This document shows, piece after piece, positions 152 to 8,227 of a stretch of DNA of 64,000 nucleotides. Position numbers and translations under genes: made by a program. Numbering within the stretch: the stretch's first letter is position 1; every line of letters begins with the position of its first letter. Source of the DNA: an uncultured Acidobacteriota bacterium (GTDB lineage: Bacteria > Acidobacteriota > Thermoanaerobaculia > Multivoradales > UBA5704); assembly GCA_963832495.1 (NCBI GenBank), contig CAWHUF010000007.1, positions 21,821-85,820 of the forward strand. Direction: 5' to 3'. Below the pieces are notes generated by a model. It was not told the DNA's origin and ran no database searches. It worked only from the letters and a program-made list of their open reading frames with translations.

Positions 152-472
152 ATGTCTGACCGCAAGCTGAAGACCTGGGCGGAAGTAAAAGAGCGGCGAC
201 CGCTGTCCGCCGAAGCCCAGGCTTCCAATGCCACTTGGGTCGAGCAGCAGATCGTCGACTTGAATCTTCAGGCACTGAGACAGCAACTCGGCGTCACCCA
301 GGCCGAGCTCGCTGAAGCCAGCGGGATGGGGCAAGGAGAGATCTCCCGCATCGAGCAGCGTGAGGATCACATGGTTTCAACCTTGCGGCGCATTGTGCGT
401 TCCCTTGGCGGGGACCTCGAGATCCACGCGCGATTTCCCGATGGCCGCGACATCCGCCTGATTGGCGTCTGA
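152..472 (+). CDS. XRE-family HTH protein, HigA-like antitoxin type
   Basis: LQALRQQLGVTQAELAEASGMGQGEISRIEQ HTH followed by STLRRIVRSLGGDLEIHARFPD, typical of HigA-like antitoxins; GAGGAGG RBS upstream. Confidence 0.8.
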   Translation: MSDRKLKTWAEVKERRPLSAEAQASNATWVEQQIVDLNLQALRQQLGVTQAELAEASGMGQGEISRIEQREDHMVSTLRRIVRSLGGDLEIHARFPDGRDIRLIGV

Positions 473-664: not shown

Positions 665-1901
665 TCACACCTTCTTCTCCGGGAACTTGAACCCCAGATA
701 GGTGCCGGCGCTGATGCCCGTGAGCCCCAGGAGCTGCGCGTCGAAATCGGGCATGGAGAGCGTGGCATACACCTTCACCACAAAGATGGCGGTGAGGACC
801 ACGGTCCAGATGGCGATCTGGAAGCGGTGGAAGCTGATCCCGTTCTCATCGGAAAGCATGTCGAAGAGCCAGTTCCTGGGCTGCTTCTCCGTGATGGCGG
901 GCATCTCCTGGAGCTGGCGGTCGACCTCGGCGAGACGCTTGAAGCTCGGCGGCGCTGAGAGCCGCGGCCGCGGCCCGCGTCTGTAGACCCTGCTTTTCGG
1001 TCACCAGGGCGTTTCTCTGCTTCATCTGGTTCTCCTTGGTGTCGTCCATCACCGCGCCCAGGAGAGCCGTGCCCGAGCTGATCCCGATCAGGGCGAGCAC
1101 CGAGCCGCTGAGGCTCGAATAGCTCCCGGTGACCATCCAGATCAGGAGGAACGCGCCGACCACGAAGAAGGTCCACCAGGCCATCTGCGTGCGGGCGAGG
1201 CTCCAGGGAGACCCGGGACCGCGGTCCCGCAGGAGCCCGCGCGTCACGGCCAGCCACACGAGCAGAACCAGGAGCAGGATGAGGACGGCTATGAACAAGA
1301 GGGCCCACCACTTGCGCAGAGCCACGAGGTGGATCTGGAGCGGGTTCGTCATGCTCGTGCAGACCTCGCCGCAATCCTTGGGACCCAGGCTCACGTCCAC
1401 GGCCATCCTGGCGGTGTTGGGCCTCCCCAGCAGGGCGGCCCAGGTGTCCTTGGAGTCGTCCGTGCGGACCAGCTCGAAACGTACGCCGGACATCTTCTCG
1501 TCCTTGTGGAGGATGACGGGATCCACCCCCTTAAGAGGCATGCCGTTGAGATAGAGCTGCAGAGGCTTGCCGTCCTTAGCGATCTCGCCGAGCCTGCACC
1601 CCCTCAGGGTGAGCCACTGGCCCAGGTCGACGGGCGCGCCAGGCTTGTCCGCCGTGTTCGAGGCGACCTCTCCGAGATTCCGGCCCGAGCCCACCAGGAT
1701 CGACGTCAGGGTGGGGCGAGTTGCCTTCAGGCACGGGTCCACGGCGGCCGCCGGACCGCCCTTCTTGGGATCCGCCGCGGCGCCTGGAGGTGTTTTCGGA
1801 GTTCCCTCCGCGGGAGGCGGCGTCGCCTGGGGCTGAGCAACCGCGCAGAAGGGGAGGGCAAGGAGCAGCAGGACGGTGCAGAACCAGCGATGTTGGGTCA
1901 T
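665..1901 (-). CDS. Secreted/multi-pass membrane hypothetical protein (frameshift near 945)
   Basis: Signal peptide MTQHRWFCTVLLLLALPFCAVA; two similar TM hairpin modules (WSLARTQMAWWT..LIGISSGT and ISFHRFQIAIWT..LTGISAGTYLGFK) split across ORFs 846..2063 and 665..904. Confidence 0.65.
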
Positions 1902-2136
1902 GAACAGGCCTCCGGCTTGAGATGGCATCCGCCGAAGGAGACGGACCGCGCGGCTGATTTCCGGGCTCGGAGCCCGCTCCGCCCCCGAGGAGCCAGCAGG
2001 ATGGACCCACGCCAGCACCCACACCGGCCCCTCCAACCCAGCCCCGCCAGGGGCGGCAGACATTAGCCCGGGGCGTCAGCCCCGGGGACCGGTGGCCCCC
2101 TTCATCAACAGGGTTTGGGGTGGGGAAGATCGGAGC

Positions 2137-2187
2137 TTGACAGGGGAAGGGAGCCATGTAAGAATCTCTTACCAGTGGTAAGGAGGT
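2137..2187 (+). promoter_or_regulatory. Sigma70-type promoter and RBS of the low-GC operon
   Basis: TTGACA at 2137-2142, 17-nt spacer, TG-n-AAGAAT (extended -10-like) at 2157-2165; TAAGGAGGT Shine-Dalgarno at 2179-2187 before ATG 2193. Confidence 0.6.
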
Positions 2188-2192
2188 GGTAG

Positions 2193-2477
2193 ATGGCCCA
2201 AATACGTAAAGAGGTGATGGAGACAGTTGTTAGTGCTCTTCAGGAGTTCTGCCCTGCCTCTGGAGAGGAGATCACGGAAGACACCAACCCTCTCCTCGAG
2301 TTGGGTCTGACCAGCGCAGATGGGGTAGAGTTAGCGTGTGCTCTTAGCGAGCGGCTGCCTCATTATTTTCCTGTGGATCAGAATCCGCTCATCGATGAGT
2401 CAAAGCATTCTCCGCGAACCGTAGGTCAATTAACTGACTACCTCTGCTTCCTGTTGAGCCAAGGGAGTCTCTTTTAA
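2193..2477 (+). CDS. Acyl-carrier-protein-like small acidic protein
   Basis: 94 aa, acidic; ITEDTN..ELGLTSADGVELA resembles the ACP LGxDSLDxVEL phosphopantetheine motif, and TVGQLTDYL resembles the ACP C-terminal helix. Confidence 0.65.
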   Translation: MAQIRKEVMETVVSALQEFCPASGEEITEDTNPLLELGLTSADGVELACALSERLPHYFPVDQNPLIDESKHSPRTVGQLTDYLCFLLSQGSLF

Positions 2478-2816
2478 ATGGCCGATATCGATCCAGCCCG
2501 TACAGCTATCGCTGCGAGATTACGAGCGGCTCGCGAGCAGTCTGGCCTCTCTCAAGGCCAAGTAGCGAAGATGCTAGGCCTTCAGCGGCCCTCAATAACT
2601 GAGATTGAAGCAGGTCGGAGAAGAGTATATGCGGAGGAGCTAGCCGAGTTTGCAAGAATATACAACGTTAGTTTAAACTGGCTGGCCCGTAATGAAGCGG
2701 AAGTTGCTGATCCGGCTTTTGAGCTTGCCGCACGAGAACTCGCAAAGCTGCAAAAGCAGGATCTGAATCGGGTCCTCCAACTCTTGCGGACCCTGCGAAG
2801 GGCAGCAGATGATTAA
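2478..2816 (+). CDS. XRE-family HTH transcriptional regulator
   Basis: RLRAAREQSGLSQGQVAKMLGLQRPSITEIEAGRR..ELAEFARIYNVSLNWL; starts directly after the ACP stop (TAAATG). Confidence 0.9.
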   Translation: MADIDPARTAIAARLRAAREQSGLSQGQVAKMLGLQRPSITEIEAGRRRVYAEELAEFARIYNVSLNWLARNEAEVADPAFELAARELAKLQKQDLNRVLQLLRTLRRAADD

Positions 2817-3687
2817 TGCATCTAGCCGTACCGGGATCACTCGCCAAGGCTTTCGCGGGGCACTGGACTTGCGTAACAAGTCTAATGTAAGTGGGGCTGC
2901 TCCAATCTGCGTATATGATCTTGCCGAGACTCTTGGGGTCGAGGTGCGGTTTGTTCGTGAAACCAGTTTTGAGGGCATGTATTCCAGAGCTTCGCGAACG
3001 ATTCTGGTACCTGCTCTTCGTCCGCCAGGCAGGAAGGCCTTCGCTTGTGCTCATGAGTTAGGCCATTGGTTCTTTGGCCACGCATCCTCCCTTTATGAGC
3101 TCGAAGCCTTTGAAGGTTGCTTAGAGAGGTCCTATGAAGAGATCCTTGCGAATGCATTCGCTAGTTACCTTCTCATGCCTCCCAAGGCTGTTCGAAAAGC
3201 CTTCCAGTCTAGAGGCTGGCCCTTGAGGGGCGGTACGCCTCTTCAGGTTTACACCGTAGCAATGCAACTTGGAGTGGGGTACTCTACTCTTACCAATCAT
3301 CTTTTTCGATCACTCGGCATGATTTCCGCTGAGCAGGCTGCACGACTTCTGAAAGTTCACCCTAAGGACTTGCGCCGAAAGTTACTTGGATGTACGGATG
3401 CTCCGCACCTTGTAATAGTTGATCCTGCCTGGGATTCTGTGCCAGTGGATCTAGAAGTCGGTGATTATGCTGTAGTGCCTAAGGGTTCACATATCGAAGG
3501 CAGGGCAGTTGCTGTTTCACATGAATCATTCTTTGGGCTTGCTGTGATTGCGCTAGAGCCAGGTTCGGCTCACCTAGTTTCAGAAGATAGAGATTGGGTC
3601 ACAATCGTCCGGATAAGCAAGAGGAGCTTCGTTGGAAGGAGTATTTACCGCTACTTGGAGGATCCTGATGTCAACGAGATTGCCTGA
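2809..3687 (+). CDS. ImmA/IrrE-family (Peptidase M78/DUF955) zinc metallopeptidase
   Basis: FACAHELGH (HExxH) and EILANAFASYLLMP motifs; overlaps the HTH stop. Confidence 0.88.
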   Translation: MINASSRTGITRQGFRGALDLRNKSNVSGAAPICVYDLAETLGVEVRFVRETSFEGMYSRASRTILVPALRPPGRKAFACAHELGHWFFGHASSLYELEAFEGCLERSYEEILANAFASYLLMPPKAVRKAFQSRGWPLRGGTPLQVYTVAMQLGVGYSTLTNHLFRSLGMISAEQAARLLKVHPKDLRRKLLGCTDAPHLVIVDPAWDSVPVDLEVGDYAVVPKGSHIEGRAVAVSHESFFGLAVIALEPGSAHLVSEDRDWVTIVRISKRSFVGRSIYRYLEDPDVNEIA

Positions 3688-4534
3688 GCCCATCGATAAT
3701 AGCAATCTTTCCTATGCATGGGCAGAAGCCTTCCTCAGGACGATGAAGTGGAGTCGGCGCGACCTGACTCCTTTGCTCATATCAGTGGACGGCTTCAGCG
3801 ATGGGCAACCCTCCGAAGATCTAATCATCCGGCAGTCGCTAGACTCTGCTCTTAGGCAGACTGATAATTTTAGTTGTTCTGATTCGGCGCGCATCATATT
3901 TCCTTATGGAGAGTGGAAGAGGCAGGGCTGTCCTGGCATTGCTGACTTCTCTTCTTGGTATCTTGATAGTTACCTGCCTAGGCTAAAGGCGCGAGCGAAG
4001 GGCAGCAGGCGGCACACCTATTTTGAGCGGATGATAGCGTATTCAGGTGTTAAAGTTGTTCAAAATAAAGTCAGTGTGGAGTATGTCAATCAGCTGCTCC
4101 ACATAATAAATGATTGGAGGCGAGAGAGGAGTCGACCAAAGAGGCCGCGCCAATCGGCGCTCCAAGTCTCGTGCTTCGATCCTGTTAAAGATCATACTGG
4201 CAGTGCACTGTTGGGCTTTCCTTGCCTGCAGCAGGTAAGTTTCGGACATGACGGTGGGGACGGTCTTGCTGTCAATGCTTATTACCCCACTCAGTACATA
4301 TTTAGCCGTGCCTATGGAAATTATCTAGGTCTAATTCATTTAGGGAGCTTTATGGCTGCCGAATTGGGTCTAGAACTGAAGCGGCTTAACTGCTACGTGG
4401 CGCGCCCTGAATTAGGTGGCCTCCCCAAGGGCCAGTTAAAAGACCTTGCGTACAAGATCGAGATGGCCCTTAGCGCGCAGCCCTACTATCAGAGGCGTTC
4501 GCAATTGACTTCTGCTGCTGCGGAGGGGCATTGA
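3668..4534 (+). CDS. Divergent thymidylate-synthase-fold protein
   Basis: TYFERM..NQL..II, GFPCLQQVSF (catalytic PC) and AYGNYLGL (the Asn position); the RSxD motif is replaced by YPTQY. ATG 3668 overlaps the peptidase end. Confidence 0.7.
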   Translation: MSTRLPEPIDNSNLSYAWAEAFLRTMKWSRRDLTPLLISVDGFSDGQPSEDLIIRQSLDSALRQTDNFSCSDSARIIFPYGEWKRQGCPGIADFSSWYLDSYLPRLKARAKGSRRHTYFERMIAYSGVKVVQNKVSVEYVNQLLHIINDWRRERSRPKRPRQSALQVSCFDPVKDHTGSALLGFPCLQQVSFGHDGGDGLAVNAYYPTQYIFSRAYGNYLGLIHLGSFMAAELGLELKRLNCYVARPELGGLPKGQLKDLAYKIEMALSAQPYYQRRSQLTSAAAEGH

Positions 4535-4536
4535 GA

Positions 4537-5343
4537 ATGGCCTTCTGGAGCAGTGAGCGTTTGCGTACCGAGGCTACAAGGGTCAATATTTTTGATCCAT
4601 ATGATATCTCAAACATCAAGCATGGCGCATATGAGATGGCGGTTGGTCCGGAGGCATACATCACTTCATCCGAATCAAAGATTTTGCTCCAGGAAAAGGA
4701 AATTCTGCGTATTCCATCGGGCCAGTTTGGTCTATTGACCACTGAGGAAGTTGTGACTGTTCCGGCGATGGCAATTGGTTTCATATCAATAAGGGCAAGT
4801 ATAAAATTTCAGGGCTTGGTGAATGTCTCGGGGTTCCATGTGGATCCAGGATTTAGAGGGCGTCTAAAGTTCGCAGTCTATAATGCGGGCAGCAAGGATA
4901 TAGTTCTTGAACGGGGGCAGAAGATATTCATGATGTGGTTTGGCGATCTCTCGGGGCCTACGGAAGATGTCTACAACAAGCCACCACTCTATGGTATAAG
5001 CTCTGTCGACGTGGGGCTGCTGCAAGGAGAGATAGCATCTCCCGCTGCCCTTAAGAAGCTGGTAGAGGACATGAGGGTAGACTTTGACAAGAGGATAGCT
5101 TCTGTAGAGAAAGATATTACCCTCTGGAAAGGTATTGCGATCGCGGTACTCCTCATGGTGCTTGCGGCTATTGCTCGACCTGCGCTTGAATTTATCTCTG
5201 GTGAATTACGAAAGTGGGGCCACGCGGATGTCGAGTCAAGTCAATCAAGCGGCCGAACCTTAAACGGACGTCCAAAGTCCCAATCGGATTCTAACGCTAC
5301 TACAATACCCCCAAGGAGGCCCCAGGCTCCGTTGGAGCCGTAA
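4537..5343 (+). CDS. dCTP deaminase/dUTPase-fold protein with C-terminal coiled coil and TM helix
   Basis: AYEMAVG, IPSGQFGLLTTEEVVTVP, HVDPGFRGRLKFAVYNAG..LERGQKI; then LKKLVEDMRVDFDKRIASVEKDI and hydrophobic LWKGIAIAVLLMVLAAIA. Confidence 0.8.
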   Translation: MAFWSSERLRTEATRVNIFDPYDISNIKHGAYEMAVGPEAYITSSESKILLQEKEILRIPSGQFGLLTTEEVVTVPAMAIGFISIRASIKFQGLVNVSGFHVDPGFRGRLKFAVYNAGSKDIVLERGQKIFMMWFGDLSGPTEDVYNKPPLYGISSVDVGLLQGEIASPAALKKLVEDMRVDFDKRIASVEKDITLWKGIAIAVLLMVLAAIARPALEFISGELRKWGHADVESSQSSGRTLNGRPKSQSDSNATTIPPRRPQAPLEP

Positions 5344-5356
5344 GATAGGGCTAGAT

Positions 5357-6004
5357 ATGTCGGCGCGAGGTAACCTTATAGTCTTTGAAGGCCCTGACGG
5401 GGTTGGTAAGTCGACAATTGCACGTATGTTGGTTAGCTATCTACGGCGTTCAGGTCACAGATGCGAATACTTCGCATTCCCCGGAATCAGGCCAGGAAGT
5501 TTAGGGCGATTTGTCTACGATCTTCATCAGTCCAACGATGCTCAACGGTCACTACTTATGCATCCTGCGAGTGTGCAGCTTCTTCATGTCGCAGCCCATG
5601 TAGATGAGATTGAGGTAAGAATCAAGCCAGTACTGGAAGCTGGTCAGCATGTCATACTGGATCGATTTTGGTGGTCTACTTGGGTGTATGGACGGGTTCG
5701 AGGTGTTTCCGCGGAAGTCCTTGATCTCATGATTCAAGTCGAACTTTTGTATTGGCACCATATTAAGCCCGCTAAGATATTTGTGCTGGATCGGGCTGAT
5801 ATCCCTGACATGCATAGCCTGCAGGGTAATCATAACTTGCTAAGAGAGGAGTATGAGCGCCTAGCGCTACGAGAAGAGAAGACCACTTCCGTAGATCTGA
5901 TACGAAACTACGGCCCGATTAGTCGTACATTTAAAGATGTTATCGTTCGTCTTCCTTCTCCGCTTGGCCAAGTAGAGGAGGAGGTAGGTTCGGACGGTGA
6001 TTAA
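5357..6004 (+). CDS. Thymidylate-kinase-like P-loop nucleotide kinase
   Basis: LIVFEGPDGVGKST Walker A; IKPVLEAGQHVILDRFWWSTWVY (DR motif of the dTMP kinase family). Confidence 0.85.
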   Translation: MSARGNLIVFEGPDGVGKSTIARMLVSYLRRSGHRCEYFAFPGIRPGSLGRFVYDLHQSNDAQRSLLMHPASVQLLHVAAHVDEIEVRIKPVLEAGQHVILDRFWWSTWVYGRVRGVSAEVLDLMIQVELLYWHHIKPAKIFVLDRADIPDMHSLQGNHNLLREEYERLALREEKTTSVDLIRNYGPISRTFKDVIVRLPSPLGQVEEEVGSDGD

Positions 6005-6005
6005 T

Positions 6006-7022
6006 ATGGCAAGCCTAATAATGTGCAGTCGCTTAAGACCTGTTCAGGTTACGCCAGTATATGATACTTACTGGCGGTTTGCTGCTGAGAGGCAGGAGGT
6101 TCTATTTAGGAGACTGAAGCAACTTCCGCCTCCTTGGACTGATGATGCGATAATTCGTGAGCATCGGTTCACTAACTGCTATCGGGCTTCAGATAGGGTT
6201 AGTCAATATCTCATTAAGGAGGTAATTTATTCGGGGAGTCAAGAGCCTCAAGAAGTTTTCTTCCGGACGATCTTGTTCAAATTCTTCAACCGAATCGAGA
6301 CGTGGAGGTTGTTGAAGGCTGCGTTGGGTGACATATCTTGTCACGACTTTCGACCGAAAGACTATAGCCAAGTCTTGGGCGAAGCTCTTGTGGCGGGGAA
6401 GAAGATCTACTCGGCGGCATACATCATGCCTTCGGGGTCCCGTGAGTTGCGAATGGCTAGAAAGCATGATGTGCACTTGGAGTTGATAAGGCGTATGTTG
6501 TTTGACAGGCTTCCGGATCGACTTGCCGAATGTGATGCAATGCCGCAGGCATTTAGTTTGTTCCGTGCTTACCCTACGCTCGGAGACTTCTTGGCCTATC
6601 AATATTTGATAGACATGAATTATAGCAACTTTCTTCATTTCGATGAGATGGCCTTTGTAGTGCCTGGGCCTGGGGCGCGCGATGGTATGAGTAAATGCTT
6701 CTCGGATACTGGCGGTATGTCCGAGTCTGACTTGGTCAGGTTTGTTGCAGATCGGCAAGAGCTGGAATTTGAACAGAGGGGACTCTCGTTCAAGACCCTT
6801 TGGGGTCGAAGACTACAGTTGGTTGATGTACAAAACATCTTTTGCGAAGTAGACAAGTATGCTCGTATCTTTCATCCGGGGTTCGCTGGCCGAACAGGCC
6901 GGCGGAAAATTAAACAGAGATATCGGTCTATTGCGGCACCACTTCCGCAGCCATTCTTTCCTCCTAAGTGGGGGTTGAACCAGTTGATAGATCGTGGAGA
7001 TGTCTATGTTCCAAGTATTTGA
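6006..7022 (+). CDS. aGPT-Pplase1 / 5-hmdU DNA kinase helical-domain family protein (DNA base hypermodification-associated)
   Basis: YDTYWRFAAERQ, WTDDAIIREHRFTNCYRASDRVSQYLI, GDFLAYQYLID, GPGARDG and QNIFCEVDKYAR match my recollection of this family; the neighbourhood fits. Confidence 0.72.
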   Translation: MASLIMCSRLRPVQVTPVYDTYWRFAAERQEVLFRRLKQLPPPWTDDAIIREHRFTNCYRASDRVSQYLIKEVIYSGSQEPQEVFFRTILFKFFNRIETWRLLKAALGDISCHDFRPKDYSQVLGEALVAGKKIYSAAYIMPSGSRELRMARKHDVHLELIRRMLFDRLPDRLAECDAMPQAFSLFRAYPTLGDFLAYQYLIDMNYSNFLHFDEMAFVVPGPGARDGMSKCFSDTGGMSESDLVRFVADRQELEFEQRGLSFKTLWGRRLQLVDVQNIFCEVDKYARIFHPGFAGRTGRRKIKQRYRSIAAPLPQPFFPPKWGLNQLIDRGDVYVPSI

Positions 7023-8073
7023 GGCAGATTCGGCAGACGATTTATGGCAGATGTTAGGGGCTTCGTTTCGGGAGGGGAAACGAGTTTCCATGCAGGGAGG
7101 CAGAGGAGGAGAGACGGTAGAGATGCTGCATGCCGCTCTCTCTATCAACGATCCTCGACAGCGATGGGTCGTATCGCGGTACCCAGCAATTAATCCCGCT
7201 TTCGCTATCGCAGAGGTTGTTTGGATTGTTCAGGGTCGTAACGATTCTTCGTTTTTGAATTATTTCAATAGAAGCCTGTGCAAGTTTGCTGGGTATGGCT
7301 CTTCCTATCATGGAGCCTACGGCTTCCGTTTGCGGTATGGCCAAGGACTAGACCAGCTTGAAAGAGCGTATAGAGTGTTGCTGGCGAGTCCCTCGAGTCG
7401 GCAGGTCATTCTTCAGATTTGGAGCCCAACTCTTGATCTCCCTAATGAATTTGGAGTTGAAGCCGCTCCTGATGTTCCGTGCAACATAGCTGCTCTTTTA
7501 AAGATTCGGGAAGGAAAGCTTGAGTGGACTCAGGTTATGCGGAGCAACGATCTCTATAGAGGGTTTCCGTACAACGTTGTTCAGTTTACCACTTTGCAAG
7601 AAGTAATGGCTGGCTGGCTAGGTGTAGGCTTGGGATCGTATAACCATCTGAGCGACAGTCTGCATGTATACAAAGATTGTATGGATTATATTTGTGAGCC
7701 CCGCTTTGCTTGCCCAGTCCGGAATGAAGATTCTCTAGCCTTGCCGAAGGAAGAGTCAGAGATCGCATTTCGTGAGCTTGAGAGGGGAATATCCTATGTC
7801 ATAGACGAGAGTTTTTCGGCTGAGGAGCTTGTTGGAATGCTTAGGGGATTTTCTGTCCCTAAGGCCTTTCTTAACATGCTGTGGGTAGTCTGCGCAGAAG
7901 GTATACGTAGGCGAGGAAGAGAAGAGCTTATGGCCGATGCTATCCAAGAGTGCTCCAGCGCCGTTCTCCGCCAGTTATGGGAACGCTGGTTAGGGCGTGT
8001 TGGAGTGAGGGATCCCCGTAGATCTTCCAAAGAGGACGGTATTCGTGACTTGACGCTCGGTGCCGGCTTTTAG
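7006..8073 (+). CDS. Thymidylate synthase / phage-type dUMP hydroxymethylase homolog
   Basis: NPAFAIAEVVW, GAYGFRLR, DQL, SRQ..IW, DVPCN (catalytic Cys), MRSND, GFPYN (Asn, dUMP-type) and SLHVY; C-terminal helical extension. Confidence 0.85.
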   Translation: MFQVFEADSADDLWQMLGASFREGKRVSMQGGRGGETVEMLHAALSINDPRQRWVVSRYPAINPAFAIAEVVWIVQGRNDSSFLNYFNRSLCKFAGYGSSYHGAYGFRLRYGQGLDQLERAYRVLLASPSSRQVILQIWSPTLDLPNEFGVEAAPDVPCNIAALLKIREGKLEWTQVMRSNDLYRGFPYNVVQFTTLQEVMAGWLGVGLGSYNHLSDSLHVYKDCMDYICEPRFACPVRNEDSLALPKEESEIAFRELERGISYVIDESFSAEELVGMLRGFSVPKAFLNMLWVVCAEGIRRRGREELMADAIQECSSAVLRQLWERWLGRVGVRDPRRSSKEDGIRDLTLGAGF

Positions 8074-8227
8074 AGGCCAAGGCCTAATCTTCCTCGGCTT
8101 CCGGCCGAGGTTAAAGATCGAAGATCCCTAGGCAGCTTGGAGCAGTTCGCCATGGAGCAGGCGGCGAGCCTAACACTCAACAAACCAGCGGCCACGCTGT
8201 CTTTGAGGTCGAGGAGGTCTGTGGCCC

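Follow-up and report, generated by a model that had tools for sequence, protein, structure and literature searches.

DcdTM, a Dcd/dUTPase-fold protein without the deaminase residues and with a conserved predicted transmembrane helix, in an operon bearing anti-phage hallmarks

The operon type considered in this study has only recently entered the defense literature, to judge from the accessible part of the DefensePredictor article (DeWeirdt, Mahoney, Laub; PMC13092281), in which 5-hydroxymethyluracil kinase and thymidylate synthase (TS) domains are named as newly validated in Escherichia coli. The validated E. coli anti-phage system contains TS, deoxynucleoside monophosphate (dNMP) kinase, 5-hydroxymethyldeoxyuridine (5-hmdU) DNA kinase and NMAD domains, the legend of Fig. 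3C gives the abbreviations TS, dNMPk, 5hmdUk, NMAD, TM and CC, and aGPT-Pplase, MazG, MazG-C, dUTPase and NMAD are listed in predicted, unvalidated systems (PMC13092281). The ten "newly validated" domains that the accessible text names include no Dcd or dUTPase, and that text gives no mechanism. The window analyzed here is a stretch of 64,000 nucleotides (nt) from an uncultured Acidobacteriota bacterium (assembly GCA_963832495.1, contig CAWHUF010000007.1, positions 21,821 to 85,820), and the subject of this study is the protein of 268 amino acids (aa) encoded at window positions 4537-5343 on the plus strand, for which the name DcdTM is used. Its open reading frame (ORF) runs for 268 codons from an ATG at 4537 to a TAA at 5341-5343, with a GGAGG placed 9 nt 5' of the ATG. 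A full-text literature search returned no paper on the mechanism of DcdTM or of its operon, although Burroughs et al. 2015, to which DefensePredictor attributes the earlier bioinformatic prediction, may describe the family, and DefensePredictor (PMC13092281) was the only source in that search to give these domains a role in defense.

The gene lies within an island of around 6 kb (~2100-8100) with a GC content of 0.49-0.53, against 0.65-0.68 in the flanks and up to 0.73 elsewhere in the window. The island holds eight genes on the same strand, overlapping or separated by gaps of a few bases, in the order acyl carrier protein (ACP), CapH-like, CapP-like, TS-like 1, DcdTM, P-loop kinase, HMUDK_hel and TS-like 2. 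Like the DefensePredictor system, the window therefore combines TS-like, dNMP-kinase-like and PF18723 genes within a single transcription unit, and related loci with Nmad2, MazG-MazG_C and the "dUTPase"-fold DcdTM resemble the predicted systems in the accessible part of that article; unlike the validated system, no Nmad Pfam match was found among the eight island proteins. A second point of comparison is provided by the thymidine hypermodification clusters of phages, which combine a 5-HMUDK with aGPT-Pplase and a dUMP hydroxymethylase (PMC8989533, PMC5889632). The window shares with these its PF18723/P-loop kinase and phage-type TS homologs, but differs in having no aGPT-Pplase Pfam match in the eight island proteins, in a cellular or plasmid setting, and in its CapH/CapP-type regulators. 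In the accessible part of a 2022 preprint, CapH/CapP mediate derepression after DNA damage, the published trigger being DNA damage or single-stranded DNA, and in CBASS the pair is divergent from the operon that it controls, whereas the pair in the window is co-directional with the operon and embedded behind the ACP gene.

In concept, DcdTM can also be compared with KomB of the Kongming system, in which, as far as the accessible accounts go, a purine NTP pyrophosphatase fold serves as a dITP receptor in immunity. A nucleotide-sanitising fold would be reused in both cases, and KomB binds a base-modified dNTP; Kongming, on which the original prediction for this gene had drawn, is thus a real precedent for such a fold acting as receptor. 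Unlike DcdTM, KomB has a HAM1/ITPase fold, a SIR2 effector partner and no membrane anchor, and its ligand binding has been shown. CBASS Cap15, Pycsar PycTM and the type III CRISPR proteins Csx23 and Cam1 are oligomeric, ligand-gated membrane effectors with cyclic-nucleotide ligands. DcdTM is similar to these in joining a putative cytosolic ligand-binding domain to a transmembrane (TM) segment that is conserved in its family, but its sensor fold is unrelated and its TM is C-terminal, behind a predicted trimeric coiled coil.

The head of DcdTM matches the Dcd/dUTPase fold in Pfam (DCD PF22769, E = 1.3e-11; dUTPase PF00692, 3.5e-5), in phmmer against the PDB (9ln0, 4.2e-13; 8y1w, up to 2e-12; E. 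coli Dcd 1xs1, 1.1e-11) and in Foldseek (probability 1.00 for the fold, E ~1e-12 to E. coli Dcd), and the AlphaFold2 (AF2) model, built from 42 sequences, has a mean predicted local distance difference test score (pLDDT) of 87.6, with values >94 throughout aa 1-150. In the HMMER alignment, from whose printed chain positions the residue numbers of DcdTM were counted, R110, S111, S112 and R115 of E. coli Dcd correspond to R86, A87, S88 and F91, D128-P-G corresponds to D103-P104-G105, and E138 corresponds to A113. This agrees exactly with the original prediction, in which the deaminase residues Ser111, Arg115 and Glu138 had been read by eye as Ala, Phe and Ala with the DPG motif kept. DcdTM therefore resembles E. 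coli Dcd (E 1e-11 to 2e-12) in fold, in a predicted trimer with an interfacial site, in its DPG and in its Arg110 equivalent, but differs in these three substitutions, in an extra lid, coiled coil and TM, and in being part of an accessory operon instead of a housekeeping setting. It resembles the inactive E138A mutant, whose chain (1xs4) slightly outscored the wild type against DcdTM in the PDB search.

The substitutions hold across the family. Of 2878 candidates from a word-index search, 1822 proteins reached E <= 1e-3, and conservation was counted over the best 120 of these homologs, which have identities of 43-60% and lengths of 220-317 aa. Glu138 is lost in 120/120 (Ala 98, Ser 22), as it also is in all of 75 genome loci, and Ser111 in 119/120 (Ala 87, Phe 31, Gly 1, with Ser in 1), whilst the position of Arg115 is Phe in 88, Arg in 14 and another residue in 18. 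Residues 87 and 91 (nt 4795-4797 and 4807-4809) appear to trade places, with A87 plus F91 in 87/120 and F87 plus a non-Phe residue 91 in 31/120, and so the aligned residues indicate that one Phe ring always fills the former deaminase site. With the PF22769 match kept and Glu138, Ser111 and Arg115 absent, the deaminase-dead Dcd fold of the original prediction is borne out at the level of sequence; lacking the deaminase residues, DcdTM is predicted to be no canonical dCTP deaminase. Public sources label the homologs "dCTP deaminase", and the Protein Atlas places one of them in "dCTP deaminase family" clusters, a label that is wrong as to mechanism for this family.

The relationship to dUTPases was assessed with hhalign, in which the family profile matched the canonical Dut encoded in the same genome with a probability of 91% and an E of 1e-6 (query columns 72-157). 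D103 aligns to the motif III Asp of Dut ("IDSDY"), the motif II Ser becomes Ala and the motif IV Gln becomes Met, and no equivalent of motif V (the Gly-rich, P-loop-like arm) was aligned, since the hhalign alignment ends before it; an unrelated conserved G..SP..LKK lid occupies its place. Asp103 is kept in 120/120 homologs, position 86 (the motif II Arg) is Arg or Lys in 120/120, and the strand N96-V-S-G-F-H101 is invariant. The motif II Ser is found in only 1/120, the motif IV Gln position is Met in 77, Leu in 28, Ile in 12, another residue in 3 and Gln in none, and the motif IV Arg position is Arg in 86, Pro in 24 and another residue in 10. The original prediction had allowed for dUTPase activity because the motif III Asp is retained; the retention stands, but the caveat is weakened by the additional absence of the motif II Ser and the motif IV Gln. 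Because the defining residues were tested and are absent, DcdTM would fall outside both the catalytic Dcd and the catalytic Dut families. The strongest conservation is found in the nucleotide pocket and the lid, not on an outer surface: within the lid, G164, S168 and P169 are present in 119-120 of the 120 homologs and L172 in at least 98%.

Behind the head, AF2 predicts a short helix at aa 156-165 and a single uninterrupted helix at aa 169-227 that includes the TM, in keeping with the heptad-like and hydrophobic helices noted at the outset; both the coiled coil and the TM are retained across the family. A TM tail missing from homologs was regarded by the original prediction as telling against it, and the segment was found in 119/120, the sole exception lying on a contig of 1,082 bp, and in 72/75 genome loci with an intact motif, the other three appearing truncated or frameshifted. 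A second hydrophobic C-terminal segment is present in 19/120, and the length of the tail after the TM varies between 3 and 94 aa (median 50), with a composition of P 14%, A 11% and S 11%. A search for fusions with other effectors was uninformative, with 3 of 3032 longer candidates matching, one of them a 1176-aa "Tanacetum" record that resembles several bacterial genes called as one.

When three copies of DcdTM aa 1-232 were folded together, the trimer scored 0.79 against 0.01 for the best control, with contacts agreeing to at least 96% between runs and a partner pLDDT of at least 82, although solved Dcd trimers may drive this result. The mark was calibrated on proteins of known state and is reached by 20/30 solved as same-chain pairs and by 1/23 single chains. 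The predicted trimer of the original prediction is thus reproduced, with the reservation that likeness to Dcd trimers may account for it. In the model, A113 touches K90/F91 of the next chain (expected error 1.2 A), which fits the interfacial site of Dcd-type enzymes, and lid residues 158 and 161-169 touch the pocket strand 97-105 of the neighboring chain. Interchain contacts along the stalk recur with a spacing of 3-4 residues (169, 172/173, 176, 179/180, 183, 186/187, 190 and 193/194), and such heptad-like contacts span 169 to 212, as a parallel coiled coil passing into a three-helix TM bundle. The model therefore supports DcdTM as a cytoplasm-facing homotrimer, in which the heads would sit on a parallel three-helix coiled coil with one C-terminal TM per chain.

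The reading that we favor, with a probability of roughly 40%, is that DcdTM is a sensor-effector, which is plausible and leaves the interpretation of the original prediction partly supported. For it speak the loss of Glu138 in every homolog, Ala or Phe at Ser111 in 118/120 and the absence of the motif IV Gln from all 120, and the retention of a TM in 119/120 would be surprising in a plain metabolic enzyme. In such a mechanism, the operon enzymes, once expressed, would change the pyrimidine deoxynucleotide pool, for example by producing a 5-substituted dUTP or by altering dUTP/dTTP, and the dead head would bind one such pyrimidine dNTP at the subunit interface with slow turnover or none. The lid, contiguous with the coiled coil, would close over the ligand, and its movement would pass through the stalk to the TM helices, such that the membrane would be compromised and an abortive-infection arm would supplement the enzymatic arm. 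A narrower version, which we consider unlikely in its particulars, holds that the TS-like and kinase enzymes of the operon make a base-modified pyrimidine dNTP, such as 5-hydroxymethyl-dUTP or a phosphorylated derivative, for which the dead Dcd-fold trimer would be the receptor, and that on binding the SPA lid closes, the coiled coil twists, the TM bundle opens or disorders and the cell depolarises.

Several observations weigh against a sensor-effector. Among solved structures, those nearest to DcdTM belong to active dUTPases of archaea (TM-score 0.87-0.90 on the target, root-mean-square deviation 1.7-2.1 A). DcdTM still has the catalytic-base Asp and the phosphate-binding Arg, so that hydrolysis is possible, and the invariant S84, K90, N96, S98 and H101 could represent a rewired active site. 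The TM helices are modelled as a tight bundle of three, poorly conserved in sequence and with no evident pore. An alternative candidate effector, a ThsB-type TIR, is encoded in 22 of the best 80 of 429 related loci; the 429 were found by a scan of ~185,600 genomes, one per species, and derive from many phyla, and neighbors in the best 80 were called by tblastn with the island proteins and further queries. HMUDK_hel was found on 21 plasmids, 18 of which have no DcdTM homolog whilst three match DcdTM, and ACP-HTH-M78-TS-like-HMUDK_hel-MazG operons without DcdTM are present on three plasmids (L088, L090, L091), namely Allocoleopsis pMIC7113.01, Rhizobium rosettiformans p3 and a Streptomyces plasmid. 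The R. rosettiformans operon (L090), without DcdTM, shares 79.8% nucleotide identity over 4.8 kb with that of Sinorhizobium fredii (L094), in which DcdTM lies in a block adjacent to the operon and next to another TS gene.

The linkage is asymmetric: DcdTM is nearly always accompanied by an HMUDK_hel operon, and such operons often lack DcdTM, because HMUDK_hel occurs in 76 of the 80 DcdTM loci and DcdTM is missing on 18 of the 21 HMUDK_hel plasmids. As related operons persist without it, DcdTM is an add-on module and not the system's sole effector.

Accessory status of this kind suits a booster enzyme, and the first of the rival explanations is that DcdTM is a membrane-tethered atypical dNTP pyrophosphatase (dUTPase, dTTPase or dCTPase-like) working with Asp103 and a rewired site. 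It would supply dUMP to the TS-like enzymes, or clear a competing canonical dNTP as the hydroxymethyl-pyrimidine pathways of phages do, and the TM would serve localisation only. The closest solved relatives in both sequence and structure are Dcd-like dUTPases of archaea, the Pyrococcus-type "dUTPase P45" (9ln0) and that of Thermococcus pacificus (8y1w, with dUMP), which, like DcdTM, are without the deaminase Glu. D103 and Arg/Lys at 86 are invariant, the gene is flanked by TS-like genes and a dNMP-kinase-like gene, and the S. fredii homolog is situated beside a TS gene in its add-on block. Unlike DcdTM, however, the archaeal dUTPases retain, in the alignment, RSSLAR with the Ser and Arg of motif II as well as the Gln of motif IV, and are soluble proteins of ~155 aa, and the family-wide loss of the motif II Ser and motif IV Gln, together with the lack of an aligned motif V equivalent, is difficult to reconcile with such an enzyme. 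Moreover, the host already has Dut and Dcd, the retention of the TM would be left unexplained, and DcdTM is also present in 32 MazG-type loci, in which TS-like 2 is absent and an NTP pyrophosphohydrolase is encoded already. On balance, this explanation is regarded as rather unlikely.

A universal TM and lost catalytic residues would also be expected of a non-catalytic membrane anchor or scaffold for operon proteins (HMUDK_hel/kinase, TS-like 1) or DNA, or of a buffer of toxic nucleotides for self-protection, with no effector activity of its own. This would suit the linkage to HMUDK_hel and the tight packing of the operon, in which DcdTM follows TS-like 1 after a gap of 2 nt. Trimeric dUTPases of phages are protein-binding switches towards the Stl repressor, and the Foldseek matches to DcdTM include 3zez and 6h4c, which we take to be phage dUTPases of this Stl-switch type. 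Set against this is the position of the strongest conservation, in the pocket and lid, and we consider an anchor, scaffold or buffer quite unlikely.

Whether DcdTM is instead a housekeeping dCTP deaminase/dUTPase, or a gene for prophage thymidine hypermodification, with the TM an annotation artefact, was also considered. The public names of the homologs and the resemblance of the operon enzymes to those of the phage hmU pathway point that way, but the explanation is very improbable, since the catalytic Glu is lost and the Ser and Arg are mostly replaced across the family, and the TM is conserved, lies within the same ORF and is modelled as part of a continuous helix. A housekeeping Dcd or Dut was ruled out, the genome having a separate canonical Dut and a separate Dcd with Ser/Arg/Glu, and the family being without the catalytic residues. 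A prophage hypermodification cluster was likewise ruled out: the island is only 6 kb, with no aGPT-Pplase family match, no integrase or phage structural genes among its genes and no tRNA within 16 kb, and no close homolog or other member of the DcdTM family was found in 50,697 phage records among the matches listed, the best being halovirus Dcd genes with at most 44% query coverage and 27-34% identity among the best 25 matches listed. The genome's other Dcd-like gene (L081, 1345-2220, minus strand) has Ser/Arg/Glu present (KSTLGRLW...GEITLEL); its ORF has a long N-terminal extension and leaves the Dcd consensus after GEITLEL, which may reflect a frameshift or an assembly error.

Returning to the operon, the features of the window and the gene counts in related loci are collected in Table 1. 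The single sequence of TS-like 1, for which the ATG at 3668 was chosen within an ORF at 3632-4534, has no match in Pfam, PHROG or PADLOC. A profile of its homologs gave a weak match to the PDB (E 0.02) in which thymidylate synthases make up 18 of the 21 matches listed, the invariant Cys186 aligning in this same weak profile alignment to the catalytic "PCH" Cys of TS, and PF00303 is matched by 2 of the 23 family members. Because the profile matches TS with its Cys on the catalytic Cys, the operon is considered to have two TS-like genes. The kinase and HMUDK_hel genes overlap by 8 nt in the window, and form one fused ORF in several related loci (e.g., L003 4340-6052 and L007 10831-12543), for which reason the pair in the window is probably a split protein of the 5-hmdU-DNA-kinase type. 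The TS-like and kinase neighbors on which the original prediction relied are thus part of a conserved operon with anti-phage hallmarks.

Matches to PADLOC within the island are limited to capH, capP and PDC-M51B (the kinase), and no PADLOC model matches DcdTM, TS-like 1, HMUDK_hel, TS-like 2 or ACP. A scan for promoters and terminators showed no excess over chance. To the left of the island, the minus strand encodes two predicted membrane proteins of 405 and 79 aa, and a second gene for an XRE-type helix-turn-helix (HTH) protein lies there too; the DNA of these left-flank genes (665-2063, minus strand; 152-472, plus strand) is rich in GC, and HTH is the only family assigned among them.

Table 1. 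Features of the DcdTM island in the window, and occurrence of its genes and of recurrent neighbors in the best 80 of 429 related loci
Feature	Position in window	Strand	Related loci	Basis or remark
Promoter-like site TTGACA-17-AAGAAT with TG	2137..2165	+		just 5' of the island's first gene; weak: 7 sites vs 4.6 +/- 2.0 in shuffles
ACP-like gene, 94 aa	2193..2477	+	11/80, same position as in window	Pfam PP-binding 1.4e-5; more divergent ACP-like ORF clusters in further loci
CapH-like XRE-family HTH regulator, 112 aa	2478..2816	+	55/80	Pfam HTH_31 7e-14; PADLOC capH 4.2e-12
CapP-like M78/IrrE metallopeptidase, 292 aa	2809..3687	+	54/80	Pfam Peptidase_M78 4.4e-12; PADLOC capP 8.3e-18
TS-like 1 ("orf300"), remote thymidylate-synthase-like, 288-300 aa, invariant Cys	3668..4534	+	52/80	profile of 23 homologs
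DcdTM: Dcd/dUTPase-fold head, aa 1-150	4537..4986	+		Pfam, PDB phmmer, AF2, Foldseek
DcdTM: invariant head motif FIS..K..GL.NVSGFHVDPG	4780-4893	+		alignment of homologs
DcdTM: conserved "lid", aa 160-174, GLLQGEIASPAALKK	5014..5058	+		homolog alignment, trimer model
DcdTM: coiled-coil stalk, aa 169-196	5041..5124	+		AF2 helix, trimer-model contacts
DcdTM: predicted transmembrane helix, aa 197-215	5125..5181	+		Kyte-Doolittle 19-residue window peak 2.36
DcdTM: low-complexity Pro/Ala/Ser/Thr-rich tail and stop, variable, dispensable	5182..5343	+		pLDDT <50 at aa 228-244
P-loop dNMP/thymidylate-kinase-like protein	5357..6004	+	33/80	Pfam Thymidylate_kin 1.5e-16; phrog_761 1.7e-19
HMUDK_hel protein, helical domain of 5-hmdU DNA kinases	5997..7022	+	76/80	Pfam PF18723 9e-106; phrog_2396 4.5e-59
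TS-like 2, thymidylate-synthase-family enzyme, phage type	6994..8073	+	37/80	Pfam PF00303 4.8e-19; phrog_5131 1.8e-59
MazG-MazG_C			32/80	often fused to HMUDK_hel
AcpS (holo-ACP synthase)			30/80	e.g. L005 9588-9986
ThsB-type TIR			22/80	
Nmad2			21/80	
C1 peptidase			14/80	

The best 80 loci are found in Acidobacteriota, Planctomycetota, Verrucomicrobiota, Pseudomonadota, Bacteroidota, Actinomycetota, Gemmatimonadota and other phyla. TS-like 2 and MazG-MazG_C are mutually exclusive in these loci (37 and 32, respectively, with both in 0 and neither in 11), and the P-loop kinase is present in 30 of the 37 loci with TS-like 2; this mutual exclusion suggests that TS-like 2, with or without the kinase, and MazG-MazG_C are interchangeable enzyme modules on a core of HMUDK_hel and TS-like 1. 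The S. fredii plasmid (L094), outside the 80-locus set, is an exception with MazG-MazG_C and a distant TS gene. ACP and AcpS recur in these operons, which brings a phosphopantetheinyl carrier into a defense setting concerned with the modification of nucleotides or DNA. A third architecture, without CapH/CapP and TS-like 1, consists of ThsB-type TIR, Nmad2, DcdTM, kinase, HMUDK_hel and TS-like 2 (L015, L025, L028, L031, L038, L039, L060, L071 and others), and capP is absent from 14 of the 21 loci having TIR and Nmad2. Judged by its domains, this architecture may come closest to the E. coli system as described in the accessible part of that article. At the DNA level, a blastn search ("distant") with window positions 4537-8073 found no match in 5,426 E. 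coli genomes.

Within the plasmid collection, a member of the DcdTM family is present in nine records (H1-H9; 67-74% query coverage, 35-42% identity), the other seven plasmid matches being ordinary dcd genes. A variant operon on the Bradyrhizobium elkanii plasmid pK03D-1 (L087, 2287-9669) has a DcdTM homolog but no HMUDK_hel, and encodes AcpS, HTH, an "inhibitor I42" peptidase, C1 peptidase, TS-like 1, uracil-DNA glycosylase (UDG), MazG-MazG_C and DcdTM, next to the genes for a Shedu nuclease and a DUF499 protein. The presence of the UDG at the usual place of HMUDK_hel hints that HMUDK_hel acts on a uracil-type DNA base. On an Erythrobacter aureus plasmid (L092), HMUDK_hel lies between dnaQ-like exonuclease and dnaE polymerase genes with a methyltransferase adjoining, and on a Parabacteroides distasonis plasmid (L093) it belongs to a TIR / Nmad2-like / HMUDK_hel / radical-SAM cluster with an integrase alongside. 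That the operon type is horizontally mobile and built around HMUDK_hel and TS-like enzymes is strongly supported, and its anti-phage hallmarks are supported by the low-GC island, the CapH/CapP-like regulators, the patchy distribution, the occurrence on plasmids and, in one case, adjacency to Shedu.

The operons that DcdTM marks, all built on HMUDK_hel and TS-like enzymes, form a large group that is modular and almost unstudied, and in them TS plus kinase or MazG-MazG_C is joined by ACP/AcpS, Nmad2/TIR, UDG and C1 peptidase in varying combinations. One version of this operon type has newly been shown to be anti-phage in a published screen, the accessible part of which offers no mechanism. From its sequence, DcdTM would be either an immune-type protein in which a ligand-binding domain is linked to a TM, or alternatively a rewired enzyme, and deciding between a sensor pseudo-enzyme and a rewired pyrophosphatase would show how pyrimidine-nucleotide chemistry is coupled to cell fate. 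If the dNTP-receptor reading is true, this would be the second case of immune signalling by a base-modified dNTP, after the dITP of Kongming, and DcdTM would be the first Dcd/dUTPase-fold sensor wired directly to the membrane.

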